Assembly: GCF_024521635.1 (NCBI RefSeq)
Contig: NW_026250415.1
Span: 310,001-374,000 of the forward strand
Length of the DNA: 64,000 bases
Direction of reading: 5' to 3'
Source of the DNA: Tricharina praecox
Lineage: Eukaryota
Shown here in pieces: positions 3,121 through 63,302 of the stretch. The first letter of the stretch is position 1; each line of letters opens with the position of its first letter. The position numbers and the translations under genes are program-made. The notes beneath the pieces were generated by a model. The model was not told the origin of the DNA. It did no database searches and saw only the letters and a program-made list of their open reading frames with translations.

Positions 3121-6100
3121 ATGTCGCAAGTCTGGCAGGAGGCTAAGGCCGCCGACGGCAAGATCTACTACTACAATGTGCAGACGAAGGCAACCCAATG
3201 GACGAAGCCGGTGGAGATGATGAGCACGGCGGAGGTAAGAAGTCCCCCAACCGCGCTGCTTCGCGCTCGCCCGCTGACACGAACATCGCAGAGAGCATTG
3301 CAAGATCTCGCCTGGAAAGAACACAAGGCTGCCGATGGGAGGGCCTACTGGTACACCATCCCACCCCTTACGCGTTCGCGTCCCGACAGACACGCTGATC
3401 ACACTCAATCATACAGGTACCATGCGCAGACGCGAGAGACCACCTGGTCGATGCCCGATGAATATCGCCAGGCGTTGGAGAAGGTGCAGGAAGCGCCGCC
3501 GCACGGGCTTCCCGCGATGCCCGCATTCGTCGCGGGAGGCACGCAACAGTTCGGCCAACAGCAGCAGCAGTCCCAGAATACCGAGCGTGCACTTGCGATT
3601 CCGGGGCAGCTGATGGAGGCTGCGGCTGATGGTACTGCGAGACCGATGACGTTGCCTGCGTCCATCACTGCGACCGACAAGAACGAGCCCCAGTATAGCA
3701 ACTTTGATGAGGCTGAGGGTGCGTTCGTGAAGCTGTTGCGTCGTAGCAATGTTGGCGCCGATTGGACTTGGGAGAGGACGATGCGTGCGATCATTAAGGA
3801 GCCGCAGTACCGTGCGCTGAAGGATCCCAAGGATCGTAAGGCCGCCTTCGATAAGTACATTGTCGAGCTGAAGCAACAGGAGCAAGAGAAGGCCAAGGAC
3901 CGCATTGCGAAACTGAGGCAGGATTTCTCTGTGATGCTCAAGAGCCACCCCGAGATCAAATACTACACTAGATGGAAGTATGCAATGCATTCAAATCTCC
4001 GACGCTTTGCGTAAAATGCTAATTTCTGTCGTCCAGGACTGCGCGCGTCATGATTGAAGGTGAAACTATCTTCCGTTCCACATCCAACGAAGATGAACGC
4101 CGACAGCTGTTCGACGAGTACATTCACGAGCTTCGCAAAGCCGAGCAGGAGCGCGAGCAGCGTACGCGGAAGGAAGCAATTGACGATCTTGTGGGCTTGC
4201 TCAAGTCGCTCGAAATGGAGCCGTACACTCGCTGGTCAGAAGCCCAGACGATTATCAAGCAGAATGAACTTTTCCGGTCTGAAGAAAAATTCCAGGCTCT
4301 CTCCAAGCTCGATGTTTTGAACGCGTTCGAAAGCCACATCAAAGTCCTCGAACGAGAATTCAACGACAAAAGACAGCGTCTGAAGACCATGAAGAACCGA
4401 AAGGAGCGCAAGAGTCGGGAAGCATTTGTTGTAAGTGGCACTGATATACTCCTCATCACTACCGTACAGATCGGCTTACCATTGACCAGGCTCTCCTCAA
4501 TGCACTGCGCTCAAAAGGTGAAATCCGGGCTGGATCCAAATGGAAGCAAGTGTTCCCCTTGATTAAGGATGACGAGCGTTATCAGAACATGCTGGGACAA
4601 AGCGGATCAACGCCCTTGGACTTGTTCTGGGATATGATCGAGGAGATGGAGCGTGATGTTCGCTTGAAGAGGAACACTGTGCAAGATGTCATGGAGGTAT
4701 GTTTGCTGGAAGCCTTATTCCTTTTACTCGACTAACGTTCATATGTAGGAAAAACGCTTTGATATCACTGAAAGTACCTCTCTCCAAGAGTTTGCCGAAT
4801 TCCTAAAGAAAGATTCACGCACTGCTCAGTATGACCAGGATACGGCCTCGGTCCTCTTCGATAAGGTAATACTTTTCTCGCCCGTGTCTTTACCTGTGCT
4901 AACGATGCATTGCGCAGCTCCGCGAGAAAATCGTTCGACGCATCGAGGACGACCGCTACCAACAGGAACGCCACCAGCGCCGTCGCGTCGATGCCTTGCG
5001 CTCCGTCATTAGGCATCTGGAGCCTGCAGTAGAGGTGACGGATACGTATGACAAAATCCGACCCCGCATCGAGAGGACAGAGGAGTACCGTACCCTTGAC
5101 TCTGACGACCTTCGTCGCACCGCCTTTGACAAGCACATCCGGCGCCTCAAAGAAAAGCAGGAAGAGCGCGACAAGGACCGCGAACGCAAGGAGAAAGAGA
5201 AGGAGCGCCACAGTAAACGTCCGGCAGCCGCAGATGAACCCAGCAGAAACGGTGGCTATGACTCCTATCACAAGTCGCGCTCCTCGCGCCATGATCGTGA
5301 GCGCTCCAGGCATCTTACTAGGACCCCTGAGCCAGATGCGTATGAAGCAGAGCGCCGACGTGCCGCCGGAGAGCGCGAGAGACAGTACCGTCGCCGTGAT
5401 AGTTCCGTCCACCGCTCTGACCGCGGGTCCAGGCCCGACAGTCGCCCGCCCCGACACGAGCGAGACCGTAGCTCCCGCCCCGAGAGTGTCTACGACCGTG
5501 AGCGACGCGAGCGTGAGGAGGAGCGCGAGCGGCAGTACAGATCGAGAGGTGACGAGGCGCCGAGGGATCGCGATGAGTATCGTCCCCGCCGTAGACGCGG
5601 GATGTCGCCTGAAGACGACGAGAGAGACTCTAAGGTACGCCATTCTTTCCTCCTTCTTCTTCTTCTTCCCTGTGCGTGTCCGCCGGCAACGCGCTAACGC
5701 CGAGATTCAGAGGACGAGACGTGAGCGCACCCCTCCACGCACCCGTACCCCCCCGCCCAGGGAACGCATCTTTGATGACACCGTCCCGGTCATGAACTAC
5801 GGTGAGGACCCCATGATGGACTACGGGAAAGACCCGTACTCCGGCCCCAGCAAAGACAGCAGCAGCAGCAGGCGCGCATCGAAAGCCAAGTCGGCGGCGG
5901 GAGAGCCTAGAGTAAAGGATGAGGAAAAGGCAAAGGTGACGACCAAAGATGCGGCGAAGACGGAGAAGGAGAAGGACGCCAAAGCCAAGACGGACAAGGA
6001 GAAGGTGGACAAGGTGGACAAGGACAAGATGGACAAGATGGACAAGATGGACAAGATGGACAAGATGGACAAGATGGACAAGATGGACATCGATGTGAAG

Positions 6101-7667: not shown

Positions 7668-7884
7668 GTATATAACGTGCGGATAGGGAGCGAGAAGTGG
7701 GAGGAGGCAGGTAATCGTCATCGGCATCCCCCGCTTTCAACCCCTCCCTAACTACCTCCACCTCTCCACCTCATAGCCCCCAGCTCTCCCGTCCACCTGT
7801 TGTTTCCACCACCCACCTACCTACCAACCAACCAACGCACCCACAACCACAAACAAGACAAAGCCACACCCTCCCTCCATCGCG

Positions 7885-8430
7885 ATGTCCACCACCACGA
7901 TCACCACCACACCTCCGGCGGTGTCGCCTCCCGCCGTCAGCAGCGGCAGCGCACACCTCTCACCCGCCGCACTAGAGGAGCAGCACCATCTGCGACACCT
8001 GCGGCACGCCCTGACGCTGGCGTGGCAATGCACTCCGACTTCTTCCGCATTCTGTGTCGGCGCTGTGCTGCTGTCGTCGTCGGGCACGGTTCTGTCGACG
8101 GGGTACTCGCGGGAGCTGCCCGACAACACGCACGCGGAGCAGGTGGCGCTGATGAAGCTGGGGTCGCCGCCGCCCGAGGGTAGCGTGCTCTACACGACCA
8201 TGGAGCCGTGCGCGAAGCGCACCTCCGGCGACAAGAGCTGTGTCGAGCGCATTGTCGATGCCGGCGGTATCGGAACTGTCGTCGTCGGCGTTAAGGAGCC
8301 GAATACTTTCGTCCAGGGGAATCAGGCGAAGGAGCTGCTTGAGGTGAAGGGAATAAAATATTTGTATGTGCCCGGGCTGGAGAGGGAGATTCTTGTGGTA
8401 GCCGAGAGGAGCCATAAGAAGGAGGAGTAG
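7885..8430 (+). CDS. Zn-dependent cytidine-deaminase-like protein (Rib2/DRAP deaminase-like stand-alone domain), intronless
   Basis: Motifs AFCVGAVL, STGYSRELPDNTHAEQ (HAE) and LYTTMEPCAKRTSGDKSC (PC..C), plus GVKEPNTFV. Confidence 0.85.
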   Translation: MSTTTITTTPPAVSPPAVSSGSAHLSPAALEEQHHLRHLRHALTLAWQCTPTSSAFCVGAVLLSSSGTVLSTGYSRELPDNTHAEQVALMKLGSPPPEGSVLYTTMEPCAKRTSGDKSCVERIVDAGGIGTVVVGVKEPNTFVQGNQAKELLEVKGIKYLYVPGLEREILVVAERSHKKEE

Positions 8431-27136: not shown

Positions 27137-28387
27137 CTAGAAGTCAACCTTCACGCTGACCAGCTCCTCCGCCAGTGTCCAGAGCTTCGCCGCCGCATCT
27201 GTATCCGTAAGGTGTTCCTTCATGCTCTCCCTGGGGACCACAGTGGCATCCTTCATATACGCACCGGACTCGTCTGTTCATCACCACCACCATGCATGTC
27301 AGTCACCACCCATCACCTCCCGCAGCCCATATGATGCAGGTAAGTACACACCTTCCAAAGTCGGGTCCAAAGCCGCCCTCACAGACGTAGCTGATCCTGC
27401 CGCCAGCGATTTCACCACCTCGATTGGCGGGACACCTATTCGCACCGGATCAGATGAGCTCTATGTGAATGGGGGAGTGTGTATTAGGTATGTACCTCCG
27501 TTCCTCTCGGTCCCTAGCTTCCACGCCTCCGCGAACGACTCGGCACTAACGTCGTCTGCTAGGCCGGTGGTGTTTATGACTGTTGATGTGTCAGTTAACT
27601 AGGCAACCGCTACGTATGGCTGGGAACGTACGGCCAGGGTGGGCGGAGAAGGACAGCACTCCGCGGGCCTTCGCCTTCTCCGCGAGAGAACTGGTGAAGA
27701 GGATGTTTGCCGCCTTGGACTGGCAGTATGCGAGCCAGGGGTGGTAAGTTTCCCCGTCCTTTCACGGTCAGCGCATGCACCAGCAGATTAGAAGTCGTAG
27801 CTACGTACGGAAAAGTTCCAGTCGTCCTCCCGGAAGCCTTCCATATTCGCCGCGGCGGAGGTAACATTAACGACCCTGCTGCCCCTCTCCAGCTTCCCCT
27901 GCTGCAGCAGGAGATTCGCGAGCAAAAAATGCGCGAGGAAGTTCACGCCAAACTGCGCCTCGAAGCCATCAAAGGTCTTCGTGTACGTCTTCAGCGCCAT
28001 CACTCCCGCGTTATTGACCAGGACATCGACGCCGGTCGGGATCTGCTCCGCGGCCGCGCGCACCGAGGCGAGGTCCGCCAGGTCGACCTGCACGAACTTC
28101 GTCTGCACGGACGGCGCCAGCGCAGCGATCGCGGCGAGAACCGGCGATACCTTGGATTCGCTGCGGCCAAGCAGGATGATCCGCGCGGGGTTGTGCGCGG
28201 CAAAGTCGAGCGCGGTTTGTGCGCCGATACTGCCGTTCGAGGGGCCGGTTATCACGACTGTGTGTCGGTAAGTGCATGAACTGAAAAGAGACGGAGGAGG
28301 AAGAAGGGACTGACAGGTCTTCCCCGTGATCTGCGAGGCGAAGAGATCGGCAATCTCGCTGCCGGTGGTGGTGTTGGTGTAAGACAT
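27137..28387 (-). CDS. Short-chain dehydrogenase/reductase (retinol dehydrogenase/WWOX-like subgroup), multi-exon
   Basis: VITGPSNGSIG Rossmann motif; VDLADL; DVLVNNAG; FGVNFLAHFLL; VVNVTS; YxxxK as AYCQSK; VHPG; C-terminal KNTLRIQMRRRS region read in frame as AAKLWTLAEELV. Confidence 0.88.
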
Positions 28388-29206
28388 GGCAGTGGTGGGA
28401 TGGTTTGTGATTGAGGTAGCTACTATGGGAGTACTGGTGCTGATGTTTGCTGTGATGAATTCCGAATTTCTAATATTCGTCCTCAGGCCGCCGCGGAATA
28501 TATAACGACAATCACGCCCCAAGACCGGGCCATTCTAGCCCGCCGTGGCGGCATCTTGCAAGTTCCCCGGCTAGAGCATCAGCCGAACCGCTTAAATCCG
28601 CAACCTCCGGGCCGTGCGTGCGTCTGACGGCAGATACATACTTACTCAGACGCAGTCAATCCCCGATGTCTTGTTTCCGGGCACTCGGTATTCCGATCCT
28701 TCGTTGGTGAGCCGGTACTCCGAAGCCCCGAACGTGTATCATGATTCATAAATGATTTTTCGGGATGAAATCACGCCGGCTGGTTACTCGCACACGATGT
28801 CACTCGCCTGCTGATTTATGCAGTGCAGGCTCACAGCCCGAAAAGCTCATGGGCTGGGCTCGGGATGATAGGCTAATGTGACAGGTAGCCCGGGCTGGAG
28901 TCGATGGGCCGGCAGCCTAGCCCGGGATATCAAACGGCGTTGGGCGGGCTGGATCCTATAGTTTTTAGGGCAACCCTGTGACAACAAAACGAAGGACAGA
29001 AGAAAGAGTAGAGAATGTAGATCGGAAACAGGCCCACGCCGGTAGCACCCTCAAGAAAGACAGAAGAAAACAGAAGAAAAAAAACAGTACATAAAAGGTA
29101 AAGCTACTAAGAAAACAGGCCCACAGTGACGGAAGCACGCCATGCCGCAAACATTCACAAGTCTCAACGATCTCCGGCTTCAATATTTGGTGCGAGATTG
29201 GCGCTC

Positions 29207-32200
29207 TCAGTTGTGTCTGATATCTCGTTGGGGGTGATGTGGGAGGTGATTCTGTTGCGGTTGTTGTTGGGACACAGGAGGTGGCCGTGCTGGATCACCC
29301 TCGAGGATACTGGCAGTGGAAAGAATCATTGGAACCCACTCGCTACGGCCCACCAGCCCGGGCTGGGCTACAATCGCCGGGCTGCTGGCTGTCTTTGATT
29401 GGGCTGGGCTATTGTCTGCACTGGCTGAGACTTCCGGTTGATTGCGCTCTACAGCGTCTGTGGCCTCTAGAGCAAGGAGCAGCCATGGAAAGCGCTCGTA
29501 CCTTTCCCGAATCGCCAGCTGTCGCGCCGTCCTACCGTCTCGATCTTTGGCCGCGACGTCTGCACCGCGGTCGAGAAGTAGCTGCAGTGTAGCCGTGTGC
29601 CCATTCTCAGCCGCCAGGTGAAGCGGCGTCCAGCCGAAGTTATCCTTGGCCTCGATGTCTGCACCGCGGTCGAGAAGTAGCTGCAGTGTAGCCGTGTGCC
29701 CATTCTCAGCCGCCAGGTGAAGCAGCGTCCGGTCGGAGTTAACCTTGGCCTCGATGTCTGCACCGCGGTCGAGAAGTAGCTGCAGTGTAGCCGTGTGCCC
29801 ATTCTCAGCCGCCAGGTGAAGCGGCGTCCAGCCGAAGTAATCCTTGGCCTCGATGTCTGCACCGCGGTCGAGAAGTAGCTGCAGTGTAGCCGTGTGCCCA
29901 TTCTCAGCCGCCAGGTGAAGCGGCGTATGGCCGGAGTTAACCTTGGCCTCGATGTCTGCACCGCGGTCGAGCAGTAGCTGTAGTGTAGCCGTGTGCCCAT
30001 TCTCAGCCGCCTTGTGAAGCGGCGTCCAGTCGGTGTTATCCTTGGCCTCGATGTCTGCACCGCGGTCGAGCAGTAGCTGCAGTGTAGCCGTGTGCCCATT
30101 CTCAGCCGCCTTGTGAAGCGGCGTCCAGCCGAAGCAATTCTTGGCGTCGATGTCTGCACCGCGGTCGAGCAGTAGCTGCAGTGTAGCCGTGTGCCCACAC
30201 TCAGCCGCCTTGTGAAGCGGCGTCCAGCCGAAGCAATTCTTGGCCTCGATGTCTGCACCGCGGTCGAGAAGTAGCTGCAGGATATCCGTGTGCCCATTCT
30301 CAGCCGCCTTGTGAAGCGGCGTCCGGTCGGTGTTATCCTTGGCCTCGATGTCTGCACCGCGGTCGAGAAGTAGCTGCAGTGTAGCCGTGTGCCCATTCTC
30401 AGCCGCCTTGTGAAGCGGCGTCCGGTCGGTGTTATCCTTGGCCTCGATGTCTGCACCGCGGTCGAGCAGTAGCTGCAGTGTAGCCGTGTGCCCATTCTCA
30501 GCCGCCTTGTGAAGCGGCGTCCAGCCGAAGCAATTCTTGGCGTCGATGTCTGCACCGCGGTCGAGCAGTAGCTGCAGTGTAGCCGTGTGCCCACACTCAG
30601 CCGCCTTGTGAAGCGGCGTCCAGCCGAAGCAATTCTTGGCCTCGATGTCTGCACCGCGGTCGAGAAGTAGCTGCAGGATATCCGTGTGCCCATTCTCAGC
30701 CGCCTTGTGAAGCGGCGTCCGGTCGGTGTTATCCTTGGCCTCGATGTCTGCACCGCGGTCGAGAAGTAGCTGCAGTGTAGCCGTGTGCCCATTCTCAGCC
30801 GCCTTGTGAAGCGGCGTCCGGTCGGTGTTATCCTTGGCCTCGATGTCTGCACCGCGGTCGAGCAGTAGCTGCAGTGTAGCCGTGTGCCCATTCTCAGCCG
30901 CCTTGTGAAGCGGCGTCCAGCCGAAGCAATTCTTGGCGTCGATGTCTGCACCGCGGTCGAGAAGTAGCTGCAGGATATCCGTGTGCCCATTCTCAGCCGC
31001 CTTGTGAAGCGGCGTCCGGTCGGTGTTATCCTTGGCCTCGATGTCTGCACCGCGGTCGAGAAGTAGCTGCAGTGTAGCCGTGTGCCCATTCTCAGCCGCC
31101 TTGTGAAGCGGCGTCCAGTCGGTGTTATCCTTGGCCTCGATGTCTGCACCGCGGTCGAGAAGTAGCTGCAGTGTAGCCGTGTGCCCATTCTCAGCCGCCT
31201 TGTGAAGCGGCGTCCAGCCGAAGCAATTCTTGGCGTCGATGTCTGCACCGCGGTCGAGAAGTAGCTGCAGGATATCCGTGTGCCCATTCTCAGCCGCCTT
31301 GTGAAGCGGCGTCCGGTCGGTGTTATCCTTGGCCTCGATGTCTGCACCGCGGTCGAGAAGTAGCTGCAGTGTAGCCGTGTGCCCATTCTCAGCCGCCAGG
31401 TGAAGCGGCGTCCAGCCGAAGTAATTCTTGGCCTCGATGTCTGCACCGCGGTCGAGAAGTAGCTGCAGGATATCCGTGTGCCCATTCTCAGCCGCCTTGT
31501 GAAGCGGCGTCCGGTCGGTGTTATCCTTGGCCTCGATGTCTGCACCGCGGTCGAGCAGTAGCTGCAGTGTAGCCGTGTGCCCATTCTCAGCCGCCCAGTG
31601 AAGCGGCGTCCAGTCGGTGTTATCCTTGGCCTCGATGTCTGCACCGCGGTCGAGAAGTAGCTGCAGTGTAGCCGTGTGCCCATTCTCAGCCGCCCAGTGA
31701 AGCGGCGTCCAGTCGGTGTTATCCTTGGCCTCGATGTCTGCACCGCGGTCGAGAAGTAGCTGCAGTGTAGCCGTGTGCCTGTTCACGGTTGCCAGGTGAA
31801 GCGGCGTATGGCCGGAGTTATCCTTGGCCTCGATGTCTGCACTGAGGTCGAGCAGTAGCTGCACTGTATCTCTCTGGTCGGAGATAGCTGCGCAGTGCAA
31901 CGCCGTATATCCTCTCTGGTTCCGGGACTCCTTATCGATTCCTAACTTTTCTACAAGCATTTTGACCGTGATGTTATCTCCCTTGCGAGCTGCGTTGTAC
32001 AACATGGCGGCCCGCTTCATCTCAGGGGTCAGGCGATGCCGAACCGTGGTAGTCATCTTGCTGCTGCTCTGCTGTAACCGTTGGAGTCCTTCCCCGGTGA
32101 TACTGAGCAGTTGCGCCAGGTTATCGCGGGATTTCCGCTGCTCGTACATATCGCCGTTATTCAGCTCGAGAGGGTAGATGGGCAGAAAGATGACGGATAT

Positions 32201-33090
32201 ATTCGATATCTGGTCTAGGCTCACACCGGTGAGCTGAGACCAGTTGGATTCCGCGGTGCCGATGGTCTTGAAGGAGTTCGATGAAGAGTTCCTGGCTGCG
32301 TTCCTGTACAGCCGAGTCTCTCCCAGAATCCTGCGAAAGGATCGGACAGATGCACTGGAGAAGACCGAAGCTCTGGAGCGGACTGAGGACGCGGCAACGA
32401 CGCCCACAAAGGAAGTGGCTGCTGACATGCGCTCCGATAGGTCTGGATTCGTCTGCAGGACTGTCGCCATGAGCTGCTTCATTTCAGCCATGTCGTTTTG
32501 CAGTTGCTGCGTTGATGAGCTGAGCTTCGTCAGCAACTATCCGTACACACGCGGTGGTCGGGTGCGAAGGAGATCATCCATTCTTCGGGGGAGCTGGGTG
32601 GAGCCCTGGGAACCTATCGATACACATATATCGATCGAGAAGAACTCTGAACTAACCATGTATAAACCGACAGCAACAGACTCAGCGAAGTCTTATGCAT
32701 CTGTAGGTTCCGTAGTATCTTAGCGATATCCTGGTCTTTGGCTGCCCACTTGACGCGGTCCCAGGCCCCCAACTGATGTTTGGTGCCGTAGGCGTAGTCC
32801 GTCTTGACGCCTTTGAGCTCCCCATCCAGCTCCGAGAAGGTACACACGCAGCCCGTCAGGATGACTACCAGGTCGTCGATTGCAATTCTGGATTTGCGAG
32901 TCATGCTCTGCTGGGCGAAATTGACGATGAAGTCGTCTAACTGGCGAAATATCCCGTGCAGCGCTTGGACTTCTGCGAGAACGTTGCGGACAGTGCTGGG
33001 GGCGTCGATGGCGGTGGAAAGAAAGCCGATGACCTTGGCTCCGGCTTGCAATAACCCTGCTACCGATGCGGCAACCGAAAGAGGGTCCAT
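29207..33090 (-). CDS. NLR-like protein: N-terminal HeLo-like (fungal STAND N-terminal) domain, linker and about 26 ankyrin repeats, no NTPase domain; 1248 aa; exons 33090-32657 and 32519-29207
   Basis: Exon 1 MDPLSVAASVAGLLQAGAKVIGFL...DAP...L..EV..L...WDRVKWA..L..HK.SL.LLL is typical of HeLo-like/SesA-type N-termini. Intron 32656-32520 (GTTAGT...GCTGAC...CAG) joins in frame (TG+C = Cys) to the 1109-aa ORF carrying TPLH-AA-NGH-LLLDRGAD repeats. Confidence 0.88.
29537..31813 (-). repeat. 23 near-identical 99-bp ankyrin-coding tandem repeats
   Basis: Counted from the translation; 23 x 99 = 2277 bp matches the span exactly. Confidence 0.97.
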
Positions 33091-33755
33091 CGTGGAAGTG
33101 GTGGTTGTCGGTTGACGCTCGTGGTCCGGTAGGCAGAGAGTGTTCGTCTGGCGATCGCGGGGTCCGTGATGTGCGACTTGTAATGTGGAGTAAGCGCACA
33201 TCATGCATGGTGTCGGCTGGCACCTATCAAATCTTGCACGTTCCACGGATTCCACCAGTAATGTAGAGAGGACGTAGCTACATAGCTACTATAATGAACT
33301 GCATATATAGAAGGGCACCGGCCCGGAGTAGAAGAAGTACGAAGTAACAAAAACAGCTATATGATTTATGGAGACCAATGATTAATCCGAGCGACAGTGG
33401 GGGCCGCCGTGGACGGCGCAGCCAGTGAAGAGTTGGAGTGGGAGTTGAGGGAGCGGGAAGAGAGACGGGCGGAGAGGAGGCGGGAGGGAGGACGGCCCTG
33501 AGGTTGAGGAACTGGTGTCACTGCCGCTGTTACTACGCACTCCCCACTCCCTTCTTCATAGCATCTTATCTTGAAGCGGCAGGGCGAGGCGGAGTGAGAA
33601 GCGGGCCTTCTTTAGTGCGCTCTGATGGTAGGAGTTCAAGCACGGCACCCGAGTGCTTCCTAGCTAGAGCTTGCGATTCCGGGCCGCCGTCCTTACTGGT
33701 TCGTAGGCGCTGCCACCCGAGCAGTTCCCGCTCTCATGATAGGGGGGTGGTTTGG

Positions 33756-62877: not shown

Positions 62878-63121
62878 CGGGTTGCGTGGGGCATGCAAGT
62901 GAGCTGCGCTGGGTTGTCCGTTAGGGATGGGTTGCCGTGGCGAGTGGTCGAGTGTTCAGTGTCGAGTGGACGAGCTGGCTGCTGGGACTGTGGCTGGGAC
63001 TGCGACTGGGGACCGCGGGATTTGTTTATTTCGCCGTTCGGGAAAGCAAAGCTTTGGTTCTGGTTCTGGTTCTGGTTCTGGTTTTGGTTCTTGTTCAGGG
63101 TCGGCTTCAGGCTCGGTCGAT

Positions 63122-63302
63122 GTATGTCCGTATGTCCGTATGTCCGTATGTCTGTATGTCTGTATGTCTGTATGTCTGTATGTCTGTATGTCTGTATGTC
63201 TGTATGTCTGTATGTCTGTATGTCTGTATGTCTGTATGTCTTGTCTGTATGTCTGTATGTCTGTATGTCTGTATGTCTGTATGTCTGTATGTCTGTCTGT
63301 CT
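63122..63302. repeat. 8-bp minisatellite (GTATGTCT/GTATGTCC)n, about 22 units
   Basis: Read directly from the sequence; preceded by (TTCTGG)n at about 63054-63090. Confidence 0.95.

Follow-up and report, generated by a model that had tools for sequence, protein, structure and literature searches.

Can a fungal protein couple a ligand-binding sensor to a membrane-damaging domain without the nucleoside triphosphatase (NTPase) switch of the NOD-like receptors (NLRs)? The question is raised by a gene on the reverse strand of a 64,000-nucleotide stretch of Tricharina praecox DNA (Pezizomycetes; contig NW_026250415.1, positions 310,001 to 374,000), here called the window, which contains zero N and within which positions are numbered from the first letter. 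The gene encodes a protein of 1248 residues, with a helical domain of the family PF17111 at the N-terminus, a conserved extension and then a long array of nearly uniform ankyrin repeats. To our knowledge the activating ligands of fungal NLRs are almost all unknown, and the field is centred on the NLRs. The present gene would be a simpler object, in which a putative executioner is attached directly to an NLR-style diversifying ankyrin array; if this is true, toxicity, autoinhibition by a conserved motif and ligand capture could each be addressed with one protein. On the evidence of the sequence a sensor-executioner function is plausible.

The gene is confirmed to be intact, with two spliced exons and the domain layout given in Table 1. 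One contig from each of two public runs, X1 and X2, which in place of a record are guessed to be RNA and whose contigs were compared with the window over 31900-33300, joins 32519 to 32657 on the minus strand, leaving out precisely 137 nt between GT..AG ends. The same splice junction (...SVYTCSST...) is found in an NCBI protein of Tricharina praecox, P0003 ('partial', 397 aa), which matches exon 1 with 100% identity, and all three bear out the intron proposed in a preliminary description of this DNA. The junction codon is a cysteine, the majority residue of its column in a 63-sequence family alignment (A1). The spliced coding sequence of 3747 nt gives 1248 aa, the length already proposed in that description, and a stop, the 3.7-kb frame being open throughout. 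The junction contig of X1 has six differences from the window, three of which yield residues seen in the paralogue P0004, so this contig may derive from an allele or from another, nearly identical copy; 358 nt of exon 1 (32726-33083) are covered with 0 differences by a second contig of X1. The paralogue itself is about 98% identical and is located beyond the window on the same contig, of 932,696 bp; its model is without 63 residues of the bundle, through either a deletion or a mis-called intron.

The start codon was placed with the help of homologues. A phmmer search against 1.84 billion representatives gave 1381 relatives with the threshold set at E<=0.001, and 569 when it was set at E<=1e-10; 150 relatives were listed. 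P0003 starts at an ATG 38 codons upstream of 33090 (33090-33204), which the homologues do not support: about 120 of the 150 listed begin at their own residue 1-4 opposite the Met of MDPLSV (hand count). As contig coverage on the 5' side of the gene also ends at 33083-33103, position 33090 is taken as the start. At the other end, the public models P0003 and P0004 both finish with ...AAISD (31877), about 10 bp or less from the beginning of the tandem array (31868), so that the full-length protein is absent from the databases searched. With public annotation breaking off at the first repeat, the number of such proteins is probably underestimated, and in this genome under-annotation may be systematic for proteins whose repeat arrays are very uniform.

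Table 1. Features of the PF17111-ankyrin gene, in window coordinates.
Feature	Position	Strand	Residues and remarks
Exon 1	33090-32657	(-)	ATG at 33090; aa 1-144 and 2 bases of codon 145
Intron	32656-32520	(-)	137 nt; donor GTTAGT, branch-like CTGAC, acceptor CAG
Exon 2	32519-29207	(-)	aa 145 (third base) to 1248; stop at 29207-29209
PF17111 (PigL_N / Helo_like_N) helical domain	32405-33090	(-)	aa 1-183, intron-interrupted
Conserved family motif in supposed linker (NWSQLTGVSLDQISNISVIFLPI)	32141-32245	(-)	aa 237-271
Ankyrin domain	29546-32005	(-)	degenerate cap from aa 317, then 24 units x 33 aa (aa 345-1136)
Tandem array of 99-bp units	29543-31868	(-)	Tandem Repeats Finder: 23.5 copies, 92% matches
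C-terminal tail	29210-29545	(-)	aa 1137-1248; partial capping repeat, then low-complexity, no family match

The N-terminal domain belongs to PF17111. On the spliced model (P0003 residues 39-221) the profile scores 32.0 bits (E 1e-07, profile positions 1-173 of 209), above the gathering cut-off of 27.2 bits, and the whole protein is therefore counted as a member of the family. Exon 1 alone, which codes for the hydrophobic first helix and the greater part of the domain, scores 26.2 bits, just below the cut-off. The domain had been put at about 145 aa; it extends to about residue 183 and spans the intron. In the available text of the published sources PF17111 is the former Helo_like_N profile behind the 'HeLo-like' effector class of fungal NLRs, and an HHpred comparison aligns Helo_like_N with the MLKL executioner domain. 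The AlphaFold2 model, made with a 63-sequence alignment (mean predicted local distance difference test score, pLDDT, 73.6; predicted template modelling score 0.64), has the domain as a helical bundle with pLDDT >90 at aa 2-182 (P0003 40-220). In an exhaustive VIA fold search of 48,161 chains the best natural match of comparable size was MLKL (4btf_A, rank 2, Z 8.9, root mean square deviation 2.4, 100 aligned), with MLKL 6ux8 at rank 6 (Z 8.3, 16% identity), the CC-R domain of NRG1.1 at rank 9 (Z 8.0), and Rx-CC (Z 7.0) and MLA13 lower; a second VIA look gave a similar picture, with MLKL 6d74 at Z 8.0. Because Z values that do not reach about 13 may be generic where helical bundles are compared, the fold is counted as consistent with the published HeLo-like/MLKL relationship and not as independent proof of it. 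The modelled domain resembles the MLKL executioner bundle only moderately; its membership of PF17111, with MLKL and NRG1 CC-R bundles among its best natural matches, is in keeping with the HeLo-like assignment made earlier. The HeLo structure of HET-S is missing from both VIA match lists, which is not evidence of difference.

A profile search of the sequences in the PDB returned non-significant matches only (E>=0.09), to influenza M2 transmembrane peptides and coiled coils. The first helix DPLSVAASVAGLL (33046-33087 (-), aa 2-15) is the part that aligns with the M2 peptides, at E 0.09-0.85. This is only a resemblance, compositional and of the transmembrane-helix type.

No NTPase is found between the bundle and the ankyrins. 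Neither the Walker A pattern G....GK[ST] nor any GK[ST] occurs in the 1248 aa, and Pfam searches of exon 1, exon 2 and the linker yield neither NACHT nor NB-ARC at E<=1, so that the protein, whose lack of an NTPase had been recognised from the beginning, does not qualify as an NLR or as a member of the STAND class. The region of about 170 aa that precedes the ankyrins, on the other hand, had been taken for a spacer. Pfam assigns no family to it on its own. It holds a motif with the consensus WS..SGLSLS.VSNIS..ALPI...DL.N...Y that is conserved across alignment A1, and in the AlphaFold2 model this part of the chain (P0003 281-310) has block-mean pLDDT values of 86-92. At least 44 of the 150 listed homologues align in one stretch from query 39 (aa 1) to about 300-329 (hand count). 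The conserved motif and the single-stretch alignments point to an N-module of about 280 aa, made up of the bundle and an extension. Judged on this conservation, the supposed linker is part of the N-terminal module and no mere spacer, and the motif is proposed to be a latch or brace. In the NLR-type PF17111 proteins P0221 and P0270 only the first 138-161 residues align with the family profile (hhalign probability 92-95%), and these two examples do not align over the motif.

This difference bears on whether the gene is the remnant of a decaying HeLo-like/NACHT/ANK NLR that has lost its NTPase. Pfam was run on all 150 listed representatives at E<=1e-5. Four had been matched through the ankyrin stub only (P0016, P0038, P0077 and P0111, with P0038 being a caspase-NACHT-ANK protein) and were excluded. 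None of the remaining 146, matched via the N-module or linker, carries a NACHT or NB-ARC domain, and none of the five longer relatives listed in a word-based search has an NTPase domain. This counts against a deleted NACHT, and the gene does not appear to be a truncated relic. Tripartite proteins of the PF17111-NACHT-type-ANK kind do exist, for example P0221 and P0270, whose bundles align with the family as described. Against descent from such a protein, the motif between bundle and ankyrins is conserved where the family has no NTPase but does not appear when the NLR proteins are aligned, the linker-to-ankyrin junction is shared by 12 fragments of relatives (aligning from query 182-235 to about 395), and the long reading frame is open. 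We regard decay from an NLR as very improbable.

The second half of the protein is an unusually regular ankyrin array. Pfam finds Ank in 24 stretches of exon 2 with 739.9 bits and Ank_2 with 835 bits, which makes this an ankyrin-repeat protein. The 24 units keep an exact 33-aa register without a stop or frameshift, and units 3-24 have a mean DNA identity of 92.5%; 17 of the 24 are distinct in DNA and there are 14 amino-acid types. In the available text of Dyrka et al. (2014), the criterion for highly internally conserved (HiC) repeat domains of fungal recognition proteins is an identity between repeats of >85% across >=100 aa, and 60-70% of such arrays in Dikarya lie within NLR-like proteins. 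The present array exceeds that level both in DNA and in amino acids, where the lag-33 identity is 0.89 in the best 132-aa window. A search with the array gave 7764 matches at E<=1e-10, none with more than 59% identity and none from Tricharina, which says nothing on the origin of the array.

The differences between units are unevenly placed. Amino-acid variation is seen in twelve codon columns (positions 1-5, 7, 10, 14, 18, 19, 30, 31), and three more differ only synonymously. By the Nei-Gojobori method over 15 distinct units, the ratio of nonsynonymous to synonymous differences per site (pN/pS) is 2.03 overall, a within-array value that is only a proxy for selection between alleles. At codons 1-5 and 10 pN is 0.335 and pS 0.029, compared with 0.0235 and 0.044 at the other codons; the six were picked post hoc, and the units are non-independent and from one genome copy. 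Of the variable sites, 10 of 24 lie within six codons chosen a priori as binding positions (p=0.0015), those randomised in designed ankyrin binders, and 11 of 24 lie within the hairpin codons 33 and 1-5 (p=0.0002). The differences thus concentrate in the hairpin and inner-helix codons, which form the predicted binding surface. The earlier term 'hypervariable' is supported here only for differences among the units of this one array.

Such regularity could also arise if the array, or the whole gene, were not meaningfully functional, being a recent selfish expansion, an artefact of tandem-repeat assembly or a nascent pseudogene. Units 11-14 are exactly repeated as units 15-18 (a four-unit block of 396 bp, ~29939-30730), followed by another identical first unit; the repetition reflects either a very recent duplication or, possibly, the assembly. 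Neither the public model of the gene nor that of its paralogue extends past a point about 10 bp or less from the array, and the contig comparison, reaching down to 31900 only, falls short of it. Accumulated damage or artefact would not readily explain 24 units free of stops and frameshifts, the low synonymous change, the confinement of replacements to few codons or the spliced 5' part found in two runs, and we consider a non-functional array improbable.

How might such a protein work? We tentatively favour, at a little short of an even chance, a single-chain switch resembling MLKL, in which binding of a ligand to the ankyrins would free a membrane-damaging N-terminal domain, the likely role being recognition of non-self or of an antagonist. 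In the resting state the helix at the bundle's N-terminus would be held in place, possibly by the conserved motif. A variable ligand would bind the concave face of the ankyrin array and so release or cluster the N-terminal domain, without nucleotide exchange; the freed domain, as an executioner of the HeLo-like/MLKL type, would then target and damage the plasma membrane. The array would diversify by unequal recombination between its units, as in the repeat domains of fungal NLRs. The bipartite sensor-effector proposed in the preliminary description is partly supported. None of the three conditions given there for its refutation came out against it, as the exons are spliced, the N-terminal domain is a PF17111 member and no NTPase occurs among the relatives; the layout proves not to be new, and ligand-controlled killing is what we infer from the sequence.

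The main alternative is that the protein is a membrane-tethered scaffold or regulator and not a death effector, the PF17111 module only targeting the membrane or cortex and positioning the ankyrins as a platform that recruits partners. The recognised partners of the module in its relatives are dominated by polarity and GTPase-signalling domains, which it would position in the same way. Among the 146 listed relatives, ankyrins are found in 16, Cdc24-like domains (CH, RhoGEF, PH_10) in ten, RhoGAP in seven, G-alpha in three (with one more below the cut-off), and Ras (one of these also Cdc24-like), SH3 and CRIB/PBD in two each; Spa2 SHD, kinase (P0120), FHA, ubiquitin, beta-lactamase, HET and TPR (weak) occur once each, while 97, many of them short fragments, have no recognised partner. 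The fusions to signalling domains are P0012, P0022, P0036, P0037, P0052, P0053, P0070, P0076, P0090, P0094, P0096-P0098, P0100, P0101, P0105, P0119, P0120, P0123, P0131, P0132, P0137, P0138, P0146 and P0153-P0155, and the domains in question take part in polarity pathways, those of Cdc42, Ras and G proteins. Nine of ten fusion proteins looked up come from genomes or genome bins of Wilcoxina, Geopyxis, Sphaerosporella, Oculimacula, Xylaria, Gaeumannomyces, Geoglossum and Bogoriella. The window protein belongs to a family found widely among ascomycetes, whose members carry varied C-terminal domains directly after a common N-module of about 280 aa. In P0093 (1380 aa) a HET domain occupies 193-327 and the N-module is internal, at 693-889, which is unusual for an otherwise N-terminal module.

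A tree of 108 N-modules (omitting fragments shorter than about 220 aa, those with only linker or ankyrins, and the four relatives matched through ankyrins alone) has its partner labels clustered, with 26 changes compared with a shuffled mean of 35.2, a value reached in 0 of 200 shuffles for the 26. The Cdc24-like, RhoGAP and G-alpha fusions form clades, and these make the scaffold account credible. The window protein falls in a poorly resolved group of 20 rows, nearest to P0005, P0014 (no domain), P0015 (ankyrins) and P0022 (SH3); the three ankyrin rows require three changes. Two observations fit a scaffold less well. In the available text of the published sources fungal NLRs have PF17111 domains as their effector modules at the N-terminus, and the bundle is common to the NLR-type proteins and this family. 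Further, 24 units of such high DNA identity with replacements at binding-surface codons are, in the same sources, the reported signature of recognition and would be unexpected for a fixed scaffold. The diversifying array tips the balance for this gene towards recognition, and a scaffold, credible as it is, seems to us on the unlikely side.

Family matches among the 26 open reading frames (ORFs) scanned in the window include Trs65, a WW/FF protein, PfkB, CLASP, GH81, TatD, an MFS transporter and HAM1, and the matching ORFs nearest the gene are an SDR (27788-28534 (-)), the TatD nuclease and GH81. These are housekeeping genes, as the scaffold account would have it. No NLR (NACHT/NB-ARC), polyketide synthetase or peptide synthetase was found among the 26. 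PF17111 takes its Pfam name from PigL, which belongs to the azaphilone cluster of Monascus, and this suggests that the gene could instead be a PigL-like accessory of a secondary-metabolite cluster; with no polyketide synthase, nonribosomal peptide synthetase or other cluster genes among the ORFs scanned, and with PigL itself reported, in the available text, to play no role in pigment synthesis, we give this very little credence. Elsewhere in the window, an ORF at 7777-8430 (+) matches the Pfam family Inv-AAD (invertebrate AID/APOBEC-type deaminase) and the dCMP deaminase family, and there are an 8-bp repeat of 23 copies at 63121-63302 and a 9-bp repeat of 10.6 copies at 5998-6089.

Several points weigh against the single-chain switch. 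In the fold search the top match was IncA (Z 10.0), designed helical proteins score like MLKL, and the Z of 8-9 for MLKL is under the level of about 13 at which helical bundles are trusted; Foldseek gave 0 matches for the N-domain model in the PDB at E<=0.001. The hydrophobicity of the first helix is borderline (KD19 1.63 at aa 6-24). The excess of replacements in the array is subject to the choice of codons and the dependence between units described above. Among the housekeeping neighbours no NLR or amyloid-motif partner was seen. The old, partner-specific clades of the tree look like conserved signalling proteins and not like fast-shuffling immune genes, and PigL is without a known role.

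The polarity and GTPase fusions could be either decoys or a new membrane-targeting device. In the broadest form of the immune reading, which we think rather doubtful, the N-module would mark out a class of single-chain guard switches in fungi that do without an NTPase, a pore-forming bundle being wired either to a diversifying ankyrin sensor or to fused copies of the cell's own polarity and GTPase machinery that bait the toxins or effectors of antagonists, as integrated-decoy immunity without an NLR. The wider family may matter to the study of fungal immunity, should the copies be decoys, or to that of polarity signalling, should the module serve as a new means of targeting membranes. The spectrum of these fusions is the more surprising lead.

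The architecture had at first been presented as new and non-canonical, and this was overstated. PF17111 is named after a protein that the available text of its paper describes as an ankyrin-repeat protein, the family includes the ankyrin-bearing relatives counted above, and a review, in the part at hand, mentions MLKL-style fusions of HELL domains with kinases. PF17111 followed by ankyrins without an NTPase is a layout already catalogued in many fungi. In the parts of the literature available, no description was found of NTPase-less PF17111 fused to ankyrin arrays or polarity domains, though they may be included in the tables that supplement Dyrka 2014 and Wojciechowski 2022. What is notable here is the unusually uniform, NLR-style array and the public annotation of the gene that stops short of it.

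With the HeLo-like/NACHT/ANK NLRs of fungi the gene has its bundle family in common, and the high internal conservation with variable binding-surface positions reported, in the text available, for the ankyrin arrays of Podospora NLRs is similar to that seen here. The gene differs from these receptors in being without NACHT, NB-ARC and Walker A, and in its extra motif, which is not aligned in P0221 and P0270. HET-S and HELLP belong, in the text available, to a related superfamily of membrane-targeting N-terminal domains in which the first helix is essential; they carry a C-terminal amyloid motif and have an adjacent NLR gene, whereas here no adjacent NLR was found among the ORFs scanned and the HET-s prion domain gave no Pfam match at E<=1, the PP and sigma motifs having no model in the libraries used. 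In MLKL, the necroptosis executioner of animals, and in the MLKL-like proteins of plants or fungi there is likewise no NTPase, and a membrane-targeting helical bundle at the N-terminus is followed by a connecting region and then by a regulatory domain at the C-terminus. The C-terminal domain of MLKL is a pseudokinase where the present protein has an ankyrin array, and the likeness is one of fold only, with Z values that are possibly generic. Closest in layout are PigL (MrPigL of Monascus), known here from the Pfam name and the description in its paper and not from its sequence, and the other PF17111-ankyrin proteins, in which PF17111 is likewise followed by ankyrins without an NTPase; Atlas clusters named 'Fungal N-terminal domain-containing protein' also hold PF17111-type N-termini together with Ank. 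From its PF17111-ankyrin relatives the present protein is set apart by the uniformity of its repeats, the lag-33 identity being 0.08-0.71 in 15 such proteins compared with 0.89 in this array.

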